A stretch of 39,463 nucleotides of DNA from positions 1-39,463 of the IMG/VR virus record IMGVR_UViG_2568526086_000005. One strand, given 5' to 3'. Both the position numbers and the translations under genes were made by a program. The stretch comes from a virus (Duplodnaviria; Heunggongvirae; Uroviricota; Caudoviricetes). Every line of letters begins with the position of its first letter. Position 1 is the stretch's first letter. Positions 1 through 9,050 of this stretch are shown here, one piece after another. The notes below the pieces were generated by a model that saw nothing but the letters and a program-made list of their open reading frames with translations, searched no databases and was not told where the DNA came from.

Positions 1-1260
1 TCATATTCCTATCGCCATGCCATGGGGCATGGATGGGGCAAAGTCCGATAATTTCTGGTTCAACATAGCAATCTGATCGCTGCTGCTGTCGGCCATCCAG
101 GCGCCGTAAACATTGAAAACCATCTGGGCGCTGGCATGTCCCATCTGGCTGGCAATGAAACTCGGGTTGGCCCCGGCAGACAGCGACCAGCAGGCGTAAG
201 TGTGTCTCGACTGATACGCCTTGCGGTGCCTTAAACCTGACCGTTTAAGCGCCGCATCCCATGAGTCACCAACTGAATCGGCTTTGTACAGGTAACCTAC
301 GCTGCCACTTTTTTTAACCAACTGAGGATTGAACACAAATGTACAGTCGTGAATGACCGTTCGGCCATACTCCCGCAGTTGTACCTCAACCTGATACTGC
401 CTGCCTAACCTGGTCATTTCCGCCTGGTTCCTCAAAGCGTCAATGGCTGGCTTGATCAGGTGAACGACCCTGTCGGTACCGGCTTCGGTTTTTGGTAGAG
501 TGAAATCACCGAGTTTCGTATAATTCCGGCGTATGGTCATCGTTCCAGTTTTCAGATCTATGTCTTCCCATGCGAGGGATACCAGCTCACCGTGACGTAA
601 TCCTGTGTATACCGCAATTGACCACAGGTTTTTCGTTTGCTGATGCTTGCAGGCATCAATGAAGCGAACGAATTCATCACGTGTGAGCGGATCTGGTTCT
701 ATCCTAGCCCTCTTTAGCGGCTTGATGCCGTTAAACGGGTTTTCACTCACATAGCCATTATCAACAGCGAACTGAAACATACCGGCGATCGTGGTCATGT
801 AGTAGTTTACCGTCACCACACTCAACCCTTTATCCCCCGCCAGCATATCCTTCCTGATATAGAGAAGCTCTTCTCTTGTCACAGACGAAACCAGCTTATT
901 CGCGCCAACCCTCGGCAGCATGCTTCTCACCACCGATTCATACCTGTTTATGGCATTAGCGCAGATCTCCATCCGTTTAAGCTCAAGCCATTTTTCAGAC
1001 AGATCTTTTACGGTGATATCTTTCTTCCCGATGCCGAAAGTTTTCAGATTTGGCGAGTTGGGGAATTGGGCCGCATAGTCAAAGGTCCCCATGCGGATAG
1101 CGAAACAAACTGACGTTCTCAGCTCCCCGGCCACCTTCCTGTTTTTAGCGGTGTCAGGGACACCGAGGTTTTCCCTGACACGCTTACCTTTAAAAATGAA
1201 CCATATGCGGAGTGACTTTCCGTGGTTCTCAACGCCCGTTGGGTATGATTCTTTACTCAT
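1..1260 (-). CDS. int: Phage integrase, tyrosine recombinase family (complete; stop codon at bases 1-3)
   Basis: 419-aa ORF with ATG at 1260. C-terminal catalytic-domain motifs typical of lambda-type integrases (..HGELVSLAWEDID.., ..RHTYACWSLSAGANP..). Sits at the prophage end, next to a small excisionase-like gene. Confidence 0.9.
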   Translation of the reverse strand: MSKESYPTGVENHGKSLRIWFIFKGKRVRENLGVPDTAKNRKVAGELRTSVCFAIRMGTFDYAAQFPNSPNLKTFGIGKKDITVKDLSEKWLELKRMEICANAINRYESVVRSMLPRVGANKLVSSVTREELLYIRKDMLAGDKGLSVVTVNYYMTTIAGMFQFAVDNGYVSENPFNGIKPLKRARIEPDPLTRDEFVRFIDACKHQQTKNLWSIAVYTGLRHGELVSLAWEDIDLKTGTMTIRRNYTKLGDFTLPKTEAGTDRVVHLIKPAIDALRNQAEMTRLGRQYQVEVQLREYGRTVIHDCTFVFNPQLVKKSGSVGYLYKADSVGDSWDAALKRSGLRHRKAYQSRHTYACWSLSAGANPSFIASQMGHASAQMVFNVYGAWMADSSSDQIAMLNQKLSDFAPSMPHGMAIGI

Positions 1261-2627: not shown

Positions 2628-2914
2628 AACTCGACTGCCTTACTCAGCTTCTCGCCGAGCGCAAAGATGTAGTCGCGTAACTCTTCCAGTGACTGCGCTT
2701 CTGATTGCATAATTTCACGATGGCAAAGTTCTTTCACCAGGTGCTCAAACTTGCTGTAATAACCGATACGACTTAGTGTTTCTTTCCCTGCATTCTCGCC
2801 TTCTTTGATAATTCCTCTTTCGCTAAGAATCAGGTCATGTTTGGTTCCGGTAATAACGTATTTTCCGAGGTCGATGTTTAGCTTCATTGTTTTCATTGTT
2901 AATTCCTCAGTCAT
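2624..2914 (-). CDS. Hypothetical early protein (start uncertain: ATG at 2914 overlaps the upstream stop; ATG at 2896 has the better RBS, GAGGAA)
   Basis: The ORF in the track starts at an alternative codon further upstream. The in-frame ATGs at 2914 and 2896 are the likely starts. Confidence 0.45.
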   Translation of the reverse strand: MTEELTMKTMKLNIDLGKYVITGTKHDLILSERGIIKEGENAGKETLSRIGYYSKFEHLVKELCHREIMQSEAQSLEELRDYIFALGEKLSKAVEL

Positions 2915-3200
2915 TACTGATAGCGCCATAGCGTGAGCGGTAATTACGCAGGCGCGGGTCAATTTCAGGGAAGTGGGTATATGTGGCTTTGCGGAATGGT
3001 CGGATTGATGTCTGGTAAATTCGCTCGCGTTCTTCTTTCTCTGCAAGCCATATACAATGGCGAAATTCCTTTTCCTCTTTCGTTTCCTGCGGTAGCGACA
3101 TTATCCGATCGTAGTTTTTTCTGAATTTATCCAGCACCTCCGATACGGAATTGCCGGAACAGCGGCGCGGGTCATCCGCACCATACAAAGGCGCTGGCAT
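2907..3200 (-). CDS. Hypothetical early protein
   Basis: 97-aa ORF, ATG at 3200 preceded by AGGAG with 6-nt spacing. Lies in the co-oriented pL operon. Confidence 0.5.
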   Translation of the reverse strand: MPAPLYGADDPRRCSGNSVSEVLDKFRKNYDRIMSLPQETKEEKEFRHCIWLAEKEERERIYQTSIRPFRKATYTHFPEIDPRLRNYRSRYGAISND

Positions 3201-3216
3201 GGTTTTCTCCTGTTGA

Positions 3217-3765
3217 TTATTTAGCTAACTTTTTCCAGATCGCTGAAACGTATTTGGCTTGGTGGATGGCATCATCAAGCGCGTTGTGGCGAGTTCCTTT
3301 GAATGGCATATCTCGCTTAGGGTCGAATCCTATTGCCTTCCCAAGTTCGACGATTGTTCTTACGTCGCGGTCATTCCACCACTGCCACGGAACTGGCTGC
3401 CCTGTCAGCGAATAACTGTTGCGGAGAATAACGCAGTCAAATGATGCTCCATTCCCCCAAACCTGAACGAGTTTGTGGTTGGCGTTCTTTATGATGAATT
3501 CAGATAACCATGAAAGAGCCGTTGAAAGCTCTTGAGTGTTGCTGGTTAGCGATTTTCTGGCTTCTTCACTCTGTTCCATCCACCATAAAATCGTTGAAGC
3601 GTCAGGACGCGCCCGATATCGCATTGATGACTCAAGCGAGATATTTACCGAGAACTCTTCTCCTGTTTCTCCGGTATTCGGGTCAAAGAATACCGCCCCA
3701 ATAGAAATAACTGGCGCATATGGCCCGTTGCCCATTGTTTCAAGGTCAACCATTAAGTGATTCAT
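3217..3765 (-). CDS. DEDD-type 3'-5' exonuclease (DnaQ-like fold)
   Basis: 182 aa. N-terminal MVDLETMG (Exo I-type D-x-E motif), later ..HNALDDA.. (Exo III-like). RBS AAGGA upstream of ATG at 3765. Confidence 0.65.
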   Translation of the reverse strand: MNHLMVDLETMGNGPYAPVISIGAVFFDPNTGETGEEFSVNISLESSMRYRARPDASTILWWMEQSEEARKSLTSNTQELSTALSWLSEFIIKNANHKLVQVWGNGASFDCVILRNSYSLTGQPVPWQWWNDRDVRTIVELGKAIGFDPKRDMPFKGTRHNALDDAIHQAKYVSAIWKKLAK

Positions 3766-3773
3766 GTAAGTCC

Positions 3774-4280
3774 TTAAATTGCGTGAATAGCGTGACGAGG
3801 GAAGGGGAGAGTTACTGGTGCAAAGGGTATATCGTCGTCAAAATCCATCGGTGGTTCGTTGTGTTGTGCTGGTGATGATTGCTGCTGTGGCTTCTGTGAT
3901 TGCCTGCTGGCTGCTTGTTGTTTGCTGTCGCCAATTCCGCCAAGCATTTGCATCACGCCATTAATTCCGACATGAACCTCGGTTGTGTAACAGTCTTGCC
4001 CTGACTGGTCTTTCCACTTTCTGGTTCTCAGCATTCCCTCGAAATAAATCTGATCACCTTTTTTCACATACTGCCCCACGACCTCAGCCAGTTTCCCGGA
4101 TACAGCAACACGATGCCATTCAGTCAATTCCTTTTGCTCGCCAGTATTTTTATCTCGCCATTGTTCTGACGTGGCTATTGTCAGGTTAGCGAACGCTGTA
4201 CCTGATGGTGAGTATCGAACTTCCGGGTCTTGTCCTACCCGACCAAGGATAATCACCTTATTTACGCCTCTGCTTGCCAT
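3774..4280 (-). CDS. ssb: Single-stranded DNA-binding protein with a 15-residue extension beyond the canonical DDDIPF terminus
   Basis: OB-fold N-terminus ([23 protein letters not shown]...), Gln/Pro-rich linker, then ..[11 protein letters not shown] followed in frame by [15 protein letters not shown] before the stop. Confidence 0.85.
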
Positions 4281-4988
4281 TTATGCCGCCTGTTTTAGTT
4301 CGTTAACTCTGATGTTCATTACCTGAACGCATTTAGCCTGCGCCTCCTCATTGCCAGCCATTAATTGCCAGTCACGCTGATAACGCTCGATGAGTTTTTT
4401 CTTGTCAGTTTCTGTTGACGCATAATCGCTGAAGTCTTTCAGGATTTGTTCGCAGTCAACCGATGGAGATTTCTGGTTGGTATTTTCTGGTGATGGTTTG
4501 TTATCTGATGCTGGTATTGCCCATCCCGGCAGCGATGGAGGGAGCCAGTAAAATCCTGTTCCATCCTTGAGTTTTGCCCTGTGCCATCCCTGCTTTTTAT
4601 CGAGAGATGTTTGTGCGAAACCTTCCTCAAGGTTATACAGATACCGACCGATTCCCCACTGAACGGCAGCGCGCTTCATTGCACCGGAACGACCACCTTT
4701 GACGGCTTCTACCTGCGTGTTTTCAGCAGCATCCCATTTGGTTACCCATTCGGAATCAATCTTTATTGATATGCCGCATTCAACGCCGCCGTTGTTGGGA
4801 ATATCGCGGTATTCATTGCGCCATCCTGCTTTGCCGCAAACATCGTCCAGGCGTTTCATGATTGCCCGGTTCGTGACATAAGCCAGCACCATAGCCCACA
4901 CTTTGCCATCGCGTGTTTTACCGCTTTGCTGTATTCGCCATTCGATATCTTCAGGGCTGAATGGCTCATCGAATTTATTCAAATCCAT
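4281..4988 (-). CDS. Rad52-like single-strand annealing protein
   Basis: 235 aa. Sits in the position lambda bet would occupy, next to ssb and the exonuclease. The Rad52-family assignment is from memory of the family, not from a search. The TAA stop abuts the ssb ATG. Confidence 0.6.
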   Translation of the reverse strand: MDLNKFDEPFSPEDIEWRIQQSGKTRDGKVWAMVLAYVTNRAIMKRLDDVCGKAGWRNEYRDIPNNGGVECGISIKIDSEWVTKWDAAENTQVEAVKGGRSGAMKRAAVQWGIGRYLYNLEEGFAQTSLDKKQGWHRAKLKDGTGFYWLPPSLPGWAIPASDNKPSPENTNQKSPSVDCEQILKDFSDYASTETDKKKLIERYQRDWQLMAGNEEAQAKCVQVMNIRVNELKQAA

Positions 4989-5242
4989 AATTCACCTCAG
5001 AATGGACACGGCCCAAGGAAATAACGCTGATTTAATACTTCGACTCGGGACAAATTAAGGCATACCCGCATTCCTTCGCGGTCGCCATTATGGCGATACC
5101 AGAGAGCTTTCTGCGTGTACATGCGTCTCTGTAACTTGCTCTCCTTCACTGTGGTTGCAAGTGACATGAATATCTCCTTCGTTACCGATTAATTCTTTCA
5201 TCTGACGAATGAATTCTTCGTCTGACCAGTTATCTGTAAAAC

Positions 5243-8375: not shown

Positions 8376-8402
8376 AAATAAAAAAGGGGCGAAAGCCCCT
8401 TA
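8376..8402 (-). terminator. Rho-independent terminator downstream of cI
   Basis: Minus strand: AAGGGGC-TTTC-GCCCCTT hairpin followed by TTTTTTATTT. Overlaps the cI stop codon. Confidence 0.5.
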
Positions 8403-9050
8403 AGGAAGGTTTGCTAGCTTGGCATCAACGACAACGCCAATGATTTTACAGTTCCCATTGATTTCAATCATTGGGTATTGTGGATTGAGTGGTTTCAGGA
8501 ATTTTCTACCGGCATCAATAACTAACTTTTTGAATGTCGCCTCGTTTTCCCCTTCAAGTTTGGCGACTACCAGCTTTCCATTACGTGGTTCGACTTCTGG
8601 GTCGACGAGAATAATCATCCCCTCAGGAATACTCAGTCCTGCCGGGGCAGTCATTGAATCGCCTTTAACGTCGAGCCAAAAAGAGTCTTCAGAACAATCT
8701 ACCGTTGTGTCGTACCAGTTATCTATTGCACGCCTATGATATGGCTCTACAGCTTCCATCCAACATCCTGCGCTTACCCAACTAATTAGAGGATACGAAC
8801 CTCTTGGATCATGCCTGCTGTGATAGGCAATGTTTGAAAGACTATCCTCTCCTTTCAACAGGTAATCAGGGGAGCACTGCAAAGCCTTGGCTAAGGCCAA
8901 TAGGTTTTCGCCATTGGGCTCAGTTTCAGATCGCTCCCATTGGGAAATAGCAACATTAGACACGCCAACCATCTTGCCAAGGGCAGCCTGCCTAATCTTG
9001 AGTTCTTTTCTGCGAGCGCGAATACGCTCACCCATCAGTTGTGTATTCAT
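8400..9050 (-). CDS. cI: CI-type prophage repressor (N-terminal HTH, C-terminal LexA/S24-like autocleavage domain)
   Basis: 216 aa. HTH segment QAALGKMVGVSNVAISQWERSE, then an S24-like domain (..GDSM.. and a C-terminal lysine region). Divergent from cro across an operator region. Confidence 0.85.
   Translation of the reverse strand: MNTQLMGERIRARRKELKIRQAALGKMVGVSNVAISQWERSETEPNGENLLALAKALQCSPDYLLKGEDSLSNIAYHSRHDPRGSYPLISWVSAGCWMEAVEPYHRRAIDNWYDTTVDCSEDSFWLDVKGDSMTAPAGLSIPEGMIILVDPEVEPRNGKLVVAKLEGENEATFKKLVIDAGRKFLKPLNPQYPMIEINGNCKIIGVVVDAKLANLP

Follow-up and report, generated by a model that had tools for sequence, protein, structure and literature searches.

The SSB (single-stranded DNA-binding protein) encoded in the leftward recombination operon of a lambdoid prophage, carried by the virus record IMGVR_UViG_2568526086_000005 (Caudoviricetes; IMG/VR positions 1 to 39,463, called the window here), does not end at the acidic C-terminal tip with a free terminal Phe carboxylate through which bacterial-type SSBs are generally held to organize genome maintenance. 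The frame of the ssb gene (3774–4280, minus strand, 168 aa) runs through IPF into 15 more residues, as an earlier note drawn up from the letters of the window alone had stated and as the sequence confirms: the codon of Phe153 occupies 3824–3822, 15 further codons occupy 3821–3777, and the TAA stop occupies 3776–3774. The acidic SSB C-terminal (SSB-Ct) motif D-F-D-D-D-I-P-F is present at residues 143–153 but is removed by 15 residues from the extreme C-terminus, and the same is true of all tail-bearing members of the family. That tip and tail form a real module under selection is established with near certainty. The fuller proposition, that they constitute a genuine, translated and selected alternative SSB ending in mobile elements of Enterobacterales (temperate phages, phage-plasmids, and IncN conjugative plasmids), changed partner docking included, is given an even chance of being correct.

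The first line of evidence is the distribution of the tail. The window SSB is identical to WP_029487537.1, the 90%-identity cluster of which contains 880 members from E. coli, Salmonella, and Citrobacter, nearly all of the members listed having a length of 168 aa. In tblastn searches the similarity extends over all 168 residues, with 99.4% identity in HK75, mEp235, and mEpX2, 91.7% in epsilon34, g341c, and NM-3, ∼69% in HZ41, CP-1639, and ECP1, and ∼59% in Hafnia Pocitis76, BUCT618, and Cronobacter JK004. A close variant of the tail follows DDDIPF in ∼108 of the best 120 cluster representatives, the linkers of which differ freely, and the 48-nt tail DNA is found at ≥95% identity in 409 of 5,426 complete E. 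coli genomes (∼7.5%). Isolated phages bearing the tail have been sequenced independently since 2008–2010. The earlier note had offered a lost stop codon with an impaired protein as one reading, had named a sequencing error as a possible cause of the read-through, and had proposed alignment with related SSBs as a way of recognizing a one-off extension. Neither a lost stop codon nor a sequencing error agrees with an extension that is conserved among the best representatives, recurs (near-)identically in complete genomes, independently sequenced phages, and cluster members, has hundreds of independent carriers among complete genomes, isolated phages, and plasmids, and is encoded under purifying selection on the protein. 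A sequencing error or a recent inactivating loss of the stop codon confined to one prophage has consequently a negligible probability; no points in its favor were found, and those relatives that do end at IPF owe their difference from the window to an insertion of 440 bp or to allele replacement, no point mutation being responsible.

The extent of the family was estimated by scanning for a degenerate DNA pattern corresponding to the coding sequence of DIPF[AS]PxxLx[FY]xxH, which matched at least 120 IMG/VR loci and 26 loci in a one-genome-per-species collection, 20 of the latter being genuine and six due to chance. The genuine genome matches are all from Enterobacterales (Enterobacteriaceae, Morganellaceae, Erwiniaceae, and Pectobacteriaceae), one assembly labelled 'Chryseobacterium' being probably mislabelled. 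A profile-free search of 1.84 billion representatives with a 30-residue tail query returned only 13 matches, mostly fragments, because clustering at 50% identity hides tail-bearing members behind tail-less representatives. Some individual records can be mentioned separately. The 'Chryseobacterium sp. 18061' assembly (L147, CACSKA010000001.1) carries an enterobacterial-type tail-bearing SSB on a 799-kb contig and is probably mislabelled or contaminated. Two assemblies labelled E. coli DH5alpha (L161, NZ_CP026085.1, 1440263–1450310, and match H104) contain a prophage with a tail-bearing 171-aa SSB, in a module comprising a Rad52-like protein, the SSB, a 3'-5' exonuclease, and an anti-RecBCD protein. 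Finally, a chimeric open reading frame (ORF) of 120 aa (P0122) fuses an Ea22-like N-terminal segment to SSB linker, tip, and tail, and presumably represents a deletion derivative in some prophage.

The second line of evidence is the sequence of the tail and the manner in which it varies. The consensus is [AS]-P-[VIA]-[TG]-L-[PMQ]-[FY]-P-[RSN]-H-x-[IV]-[HYN]-[AVS]-[ILV], and in all 140 genuine matches listed (120 from IMG/VR and 20 from genomes) the stop codon lies exactly 15 codons past IPF, with no frameshifted or prematurely stopped tail among them. The six chance matches, none of them in an SSB, reach a stop after 5, 7, 15, 18, 33, and 37 codons; a read-through of 15 codons is by itself not unusual by chance, and it is the conservation that exceeds chance. 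Among 83 unique tail DNAs the conserved codons have an entropy of ∼0 at positions 1 and 2 and of 0.7–1.9 bits at position 3, and this restriction of variation to third positions indicates that selection acts on the peptide, not on the DNA. The ratio of nonsynonymous to synonymous substitution rates (dN/dS, Nei-Gojobori) is ∼0.15 for the tail as a whole (15 codons) and 0.26 when only the ten codons left free by the search pattern are counted, with synonymous sites near saturation (dS ∼1.2–1.4). The corresponding ratio of the proportions of differences (pN/pS) in 53 unique E. coli-like genes is 0.21 for the OB core, 0.50 for the linker, 0.05 for the tip, and 0.18 for the tail, the tip being the most constrained segment of the gene. 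Tails of 15 residues also exist outside the search pattern, namely APIGLMHPTHAIFSI (Pocitis76), ATIGLQYGKSRIYAL (BUCT618), and APVGLMYNNALIHCI; the diverged tails APIGLPYPRHAIYVI, APIGLPFPSHSIYAL, APIGLMHPTHAIFSI, and ATIGLQYGKSRIYAL retain the length and the key residues. An element acting at the level of DNA was considered and rejected, since a scan of the recombination operon (3000–5200) revealed no promoter-like or terminator-like site, the codon pattern points to the peptide as the target of selection, and the one antisense ORF that overlaps the tail, at 3720–3875, is out of register with the codon-position pattern.

Close relatives ending at IPF do exist, and the way in which they differ from the window is informative. 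The SSB of Huey is 98% identical over residues 1–153 and stops at IPF; a putative endonuclease gene (L001:3463–3945) follows directly, and its product carries the tail at its end. In E. coli STEC346 the window module is present with flanks 98.8% and 98.5% identical, and an insert of ∼440 bp (L162:1561–2000) lies exactly between the IPF codon and the tail. This insert supplies a stop, followed by a spacer and by an HNH ORF whose frame continues into the tail, and the STEC346 ssb is recoded over its final 33 nt. The cassette-free junction runs from ...GATATACCCTTT directly into GCACCAGTAACT.... With a search pattern excluding the preceding Phe, a tail-bearing Zn-ribbon HNH protein of 159 aa was located in nine IMG/VR loci, each time 8 nt after an ssb that ends in DDSDIPF and a stop, and the same layout of ssb, HNH gene, and tail recurs in Sf6, IME10, N7, CurroJimenez, Huey, and loci L149–L158. 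Two HNH lineages, 46.6% identical, use the same insertion site. The HNH protein of Huey has no Pfam match, although the motif ...AHHCDY...WLC..CH..WH is visible; the family comprises 536 phage records, with relatives annotated as endonuclease, and within it the tail is found only in Sf6 gp26, IME10, N7, CurroJimenez, and Huey. The tail is missing from the ends of HNH relatives in Vibrio, Klebsiella, and Pectobacterium phages, on which ground an origin of the tail in the endonuclease was rejected; the tail is instead native to ssb and was captured by the inserted cassette. An origin of the two endings by point mutation was likewise rejected, the alignment with Huey and STEC346 revealing allele replacement and a 440-bp insert and not a single-base change of the stop codon. 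As judged from these alignments, IPF-ending close homologues are derived or alternative alleles, and do not represent an ancestral form that was recently broken in the window. The view in the earlier note that homologues ending at IPF would point to a recent inactivating mutation does not hold for them, as they arise by insertion of the HNH cassette or by allele replacement.

By its sequence and position the insert looks like a putative homing-endonuclease gene targeting the tip-coding sequence of ssb. Its Zn-ribbon HNH ORF of 155–159 aa has in common with free-standing HNH homing endonuclease genes presence or absence at one exact site, near-identical flanks, and recoded adjacent ssb codons, but differs from them in lying inside a coding region while leaving both products intact, such that ssb stops at IPF and the putative endonuclease inherits the tail. 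In an unrelated phage, Vibrio phage 252E42.2, an HNH homologue (L165:470–1026) also lies directly after ssb; the annotated end of this ssb is ...DFDDDRS, and the next codons read DIPF and a stop, as if a 9-nt insertion with a stop codon had split the tip.

The third line of evidence is that tip and tail are portable together. They are found on the E. coli-like SSB core, on a Proteus-type core (MANGSVNKV...), on a 152-aa PF00436 SSB that is only ∼35% identical (MAINTITISG...), on the 244-aa HK620 HkaK-type 'SSB-2' family (phrog_743, without a PF00436 match, 36% identical to HkaK), and on a further divergent protein (L101). Every core type also occurs tail-less, for example in Sf6 and ES18, in Tbat2_3 and mEp044, and in HK620. 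The gene upstream of tail-bearing ssb belongs to one of five families (Rad52-type, ERF, RecT, Sak4/AAA_24, or DUF2303), the downstream gene is variable (exonuclease, abc2, methylase, or a hypothetical gene), and a single variant of the tail can be found beside as many as six upstream clusters and on three core types. All-versus-all clustering of ORFs from the 140 loci revealed no family common across core types apart from repressors and integrases, and a fixed neighboring partner gene was rejected on this basis. The grouping of tail variants follows the host family, not the SSB core or the annealing protein, as exemplified by APIGL[PMQ]YPRHxI[YN]VI, which is found in Providencia, Proteus, and Moellerella on three core types and beside six upstream clusters. 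Among other proteins, the pattern excluding the preceding Phe matched only the HNH endonuclease and yielded one chance match. Another short C-terminal module on a recombination-module protein was encountered in HK620-type loci, in which the exonuclease upstream of Sak4 (L026:233–973, plus strand) carries a 30-residue 'ExoX-like C-terminal' domain, PF20600.

Portability extends to plasmids. Tail-bearing SSBs were located on IncN plasmids by tblastn against PLSDB, and the tail DNA is present in 122 plasmid records, mostly IncN, 117 of them conjugative. The 177-aa tail-bearing SSB of pTR4 (L168:2005–2538) is encoded between replication and antirestriction genes. Sister plasmids have lost the tail. 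In p0801-IMP (L171:1889–2440) an indel directly after IPF creates a TGA and leaves a tail remnant out of frame, and in pKpnC22 (L170:1890–2366) an internal deletion has rendered ssb a pseudogene. The earlier note had supposed that the tailed SSB favors the Rad52-like annealing protein and the exonuclease encoded next to it. This supposition is not supported, the same ending occurring beside five upstream families, with or without an exonuclease, and on IncN conjugative plasmids having no annealing protein nearby.

In core, linker, and tip the window protein is a member of the bacterial SSB family, while it fails the functional hallmark of a terminal tip. Pfam family PF00436 matches residues 6–104 (E = 1.8e-35), and the OB core matches SSBs of the PDB in phmmer searches with E down to 5.6e-59, aligning to the E. 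coli-type SSBs 1eqq, 1eyg, and 7f2n. Solved SSB structures all align to residues 1–153 only, such that the last 15 residues lack a structural counterpart, and a search of the PDB with the tail peptide gave no match. The AlphaFold2 (AF2) monomer model, built from a 39-sequence alignment, is confident over residues 6–113, with predicted local distance difference test (pLDDT) values of 74–88 in the beta-barrel; residues 114–168 have pLDDT <50, and the tail is disordered and makes no contact to the core. The linker is of low complexity and is the most variable segment in SSB alignments A2 and A3. From ∼67% identity to the E. coli-type SSB P0014 in alignment A2, the window protein is predicted to be a homotetramer that binds single-stranded DNA (ssDNA). 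In P0014 itself (244 aa) the first ∼66 residues are tandemly duplicated, either as an artefact of assembly or gene calling or as a real duplication. An intramolecular latch, in which the tail docks on its own core, was rejected; the disorder of the tail in the AF2 model together with its presence on unrelated cores suggests instead a linear motif read in trans. Full-text searches of the literature with peptide strings and keywords gave no paper mentioning the tail. A 2025 survey of lambdoid recombination modules calls their SSBs unstudied and defers analysis of their 'partner interaction domains' (PMC12315714), and HK75 Gp31 is treated as uncharacterized in a 2026 preprint.

A possible consequence of this ending can be derived from known SSB complexes. 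The pockets that receive the SSB-Ct bury the Phe side chain, anchor its alpha-carboxyl group on a basic lip, and hold Asp residues on a basic ridge; deletion of the terminal Phe eliminates the binding of partners in vitro and kills E. coli (PMC10164576, PMC5872125). E. coli SSB with green fluorescent protein (GFP) fused at the C-terminus binds ssDNA normally, has no detectable binding to ExoI, and behaves in a dominant-negative-like manner when expressed from a plasmid (PMC7293020). By analogy, the internal position of Phe153 would remove the free alpha-carboxylate that the canonical pockets of ExoI, RecQ, PriA, chi, DnaG, RecO, and RecG clamp, and canonical docking is probably disabled or strongly weakened. 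The element SSB would in that case coat its own ssDNA without plugging into the host SSB interactome. The claim in the earlier note that host partners are no longer recruited through the tip is thus plausible in the light of the pocket structures and SSB-GFP, by analogy; the note was right about the extension itself but missed the conservation of the tail sequence, which points to a specific ligand and not to a mere block, since a mere block needs neither a conserved sequence nor a fixed length. Probably in combination with the tip, which is itself still conserved, the conserved tail may accordingly act as a short linear docking motif for a specific partner, most likely host-encoded, by which the SSB would switch or narrow its partners instead of simply losing them. 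Such a partner switch is considered about as probable as its converse. The lack of a fixed neighbor and the occurrence of the tail on plasmids without recombination genes make a host-encoded partner the most economical guess, and the grouping of tail variants by host family could fit either a host partner or shared gene pools. A more elaborate form of the proposal, the 'stealth SSB', is tentative and rather unlikely to be right in full. Here tip and tail would form a bipartite selectivity adaptor, the capped tip being invisible to recombination mediators and nucleases of the host (ExoI, RecJ, RecQ, and RecOR), and the composite motif recruiting one chosen host factor, e.g., primase, Pol III chi-psi, or the beta clamp. 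It may operate in temperate phages during recombination or replication and in IncN plasmids on conjugative entry, and mixing of subunits might poison host SSB tetramers.

Several observations weigh against a selected ending with changed docking. The cap and the new ligand are both inferred steps, and GFP is a bulky fold whereas the tail is a peptide of 15 residues, such that a short flexible extension might still permit weak binding of the tip. Moreover, a pure block needs no conserved sequence and a pure new ligand needs no canonical tip, yet the tip is the most constrained segment, so that each half of the model draws on an observation of its own. Nature can also dispense with the tail, given that IncN lineages have lost it by indel or by decay of ssb and that Sf6, IME10, N7, and Huey have IPF-ending SSBs. 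The grouping of tails by host family could reflect recombination among elements that share hosts. Finally, within the E. coli-like set the pS of the tail is 0.28, compared with ∼0.6, which indicates a recent recombinational spread that inflates the apparent conservation in this subset.

The last observation also speaks for a reading in which the tail is passive baggage, the conserved tip-coding DNA being a hotspot at which ssb alleles recombine and the next 45 nt riding along with the downstream module without function. Lambdoid genomes are indeed mosaic, the divergence of Huey and STEC346 from the window starts inside the tip codons, and loss of the tail is not lethal. The downstream genes with which such baggage would travel nevertheless vary, from exonuclease, abc2, methylase, and hypothetical genes to a convergent SprT gene; diverged tails keep length and key residues even though synonymous sites are near saturation (dN/dS 0.15–0.26), and the 140 SSB matches listed include no frameshifted or prematurely stopped tail. 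The codon analysis has already largely refuted this reading, which is considered highly improbable.

The chemistry of the tail end raises a different alternative, in which the tail retains a selected function but serves as a tag for degradation or remodelling, i.e., as a C-terminal degron with a non-polar end and an adaptor-like part, comparable to the bipartite ssrA tag or to the C-terminus of MuA that ClpX recognizes, such that the SSB is short-lived or stripped from ssDNA by an unfoldase. The last residue is always I, L, or V, the penultimate residue is A, V, S, or C, and basic or His residues precede them, as in ...RHAIHAI, ...RHAIYVI, ...SHSIYAL, and ...KSRIYAL. Degron signals comprise exposed non-polar ends such as LAA-COOH, or AI-COOH with basic residues before it; proteases or unfoldases recognize apolar C-terminal pentapeptides and the ...RRKKAI end of MuA, and instability is frequent among lambdoid early proteins. 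Compared with this degron consensus, the tail ends seen are AI, VI, AL, VV, SI, and CL, with R or H residues before them, and do not match LAA. The fixed length of the tail, its invariable location at the extreme C-terminus, its predicted disorder in the AF2 model, and an autonomy sufficient for it to sit on an unrelated HNH endonuclease would all suit a tag. However, the invariant Pro2, Leu5, Phe/Tyr7, Pro8, and His10 lie far from the C-terminus and exceed the known needs of degrons, and a degron leaves unexplained why the tail in SSBs always follows an intact canonical tip at an exact spacing. A degron is therefore regarded as unlikely, although it is the more credible of the two alternatives that assign the tail a function of its own other than docking.

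The second such alternative is a pro-protein, in which the tail is a removable mask and a host or element protease cuts between Phe153 and Ala154, exposing DDDIPF-COOH at a chosen time or place. It would account for a tip as constrained as in host SSB, for a boundary that is exact in every member, and for the nearly invariant [AS]-P at positions +1 and +2 after Phe. The gene has also been converted repeatedly in nature to IPF and a stop at the same junction, through the HNH cassette in some elements and the IncN indel in others, which implies that an exposed tip is functional in these elements. On IncN plasmids a candidate protease is even at hand, a SprT-family zinc metalloprotease gene (L168:2568–3353, minus strand) being convergent with tail-bearing ssb beside the antirestriction genes, and in the same position in L169–L171. 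The SprT gene is nevertheless absent from the window and from all phage loci, for which reason it was rejected as a universal partner; its link to processing of the SSB tail is speculative, and no other protease is consistently linked. A leaving peptide would moreover need little conservation past the cleavage site, whereas constraint extends over all 15 positions and the length does not vary, and the tail is kept in frame on HNH endonucleases, on which unmasking would be meaningless. The pro-protein is accordingly judged improbable, and somewhat more so than the degron.

The position of the tail within the gene and of the gene within its operon is summarized in Table 1. The recombination operon is tightly packed, and the early region of the window is a mosaic close to mEp235, N7, IME10, and Sf6. 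Between the recombination module and an excisionase-like gene, at 1923–2627 on the minus strand, lies a gene for a protein of 234 aa that contains a very acidic stretch (DEDAETEEDEDWDDDDD) and has no Pfam match.

Table 1. Segments of the ssb gene and other features of the window, with positions in the window and the basis of each assignment.
Feature	Position	Strand	Basis or remark
ssb gene	3774..4280	-	168 codons from ATG + TAA stop; ORF list and translation
OB-fold core (DNA binding, tetramerization), residues 1-113	3942..4280	-	Pfam, AF2, SSB structures; pN/pS 0.21
Disordered linker, Gln/Pro/Ser-rich, residues 114-142	3855..3941	-	pLDDT <50; pN/pS 0.50
Canonical acidic SSB-Ct tip, residues 143-153, internal here	3822..3854	-	Sequence; pN/pS 0.05
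15-residue tail, residues 154-168	3777..3821	-	Invariant length; codon pattern; pN/pS 0.18
Junction of IPF codon and tail	3821..3822	-	Insertion point of ∼440-bp HNH cassette in related elements
Rad52/Rad22-family single-strand annealing protein, upstream gene	4281..4988	-	PF04098, E = 5e-26; stop abuts ssb ATG
DnaQ-like 3'-5' exonuclease (Rv2179c-like), downstream gene	3217..3765	-	PF16473, E = 1.3e-73; start 8 nt past ssb stop
Abc2 anti-RecBCD protein, last gene of recombination module	2907..3200	-	PF11043, E = 6.1e-64
Integrase	1-1260		
cI-like repressor	8400-9050		

A natural, selected, and common class of SSB thus breaks the rule of the free terminal carboxylate, in ∼7.5% of complete E. 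coli genomes, in the classic phages HK75, epsilon34, and mEp235, and on IncN plasmids. If the tail does switch partners, it would reveal a way in which the ssDNA of phages and plasmids is shielded from the host SSB interactome or one chosen factor is brought to it, and it would define a peptide-protein interface that is new in this pathway, at which antibiotic development is already aimed. The tail is also relevant to recombineering, in which portability is limited by how well annealing protein and SSB tip match. Tests are easy to set up. The tail is carried by phages growing on E. coli K-12, and nature provides tailed and tail-less alleles on one backbone, namely the window and STEC346 or Sf6, and pTR4 and p0801-IMP.

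Among known systems, the window SSB shares with the E. coli-type homotetrameric SSB the OB core, the Gln/Pro-rich disordered linker, and an intact, strongly constrained tip, but its tip is not terminal, being followed by 15 conserved residues past Phe, and the anchoring alpha-carboxylate is absent (PMC10164576). The tip-ending SSBs Sf6 gp27, ES18 gp48, HK620 HkaK, and that of p0801-IMP have the same cores, an acidic tip, and the same position in a recombination module or in the IncN backbone by antirestriction genes; unlike the window SSB they stop at the terminal Phe, at IPF in Sf6, ES18, and p0801-IMP and at PPF in HkaK, the NDYPPF end of which is required for stimulation of Sak4 (PMC5928155). 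Sequence comparison indicates that tailed and tip-ending SSBs are alternative allelic classes that interconvert by insertion of the HNH cassette, by indel, or by allele exchange.

A likeness to beta-clamp-binding motifs is apparent in tail residues 2–7, P-[VI]-[TG]-L-[PM]-[FY], which have the x-hydrophobic-x-L-x-aromatic spacing in a disordered C-terminal segment; QLSLPL of Hda, QLVLGL of Pol IV, and QVELEF of Pol III alpha have the same hydrophobic spacing. In the tail an invariant Leu is followed by [PMQ] and then by Phe or Tyr, the Leu and Phe/Tyr codons being fixed by the search pattern, and pattern-independent tails mostly keep both, the exceptions being His in place of Phe/Tyr in Pocitis76 and Lys in place of Leu in P0129. 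The clamp-binding consensus is QL[SD]LF or Q-L-x-L-F and is usually C-terminal (PMC9690074, PMC4549789), whereas the tail has an invariant Pro where the conserved Gln would stand (in 83 of 83 unique tail DNAs, at a codon fixed by the search pattern), pattern-independent tails have Pro, Thr, or Lys at this position and never Gln, and eight more conserved residues follow that clamp motifs do not need. Docking on the beta clamp through the tail is accordingly a candidate, and a lead only. Lastly, engineered SSB-GFP (PMC7293020), the only experimental analogue of a capped tip that was found, resembles the window SSB in its extension past IPF, and binds ssDNA normally, but it is artificial, carries a bulky folded domain, and is non-functional or dominant-negative, whereas the natural tail is short, disordered, conserved, and kept by selection.

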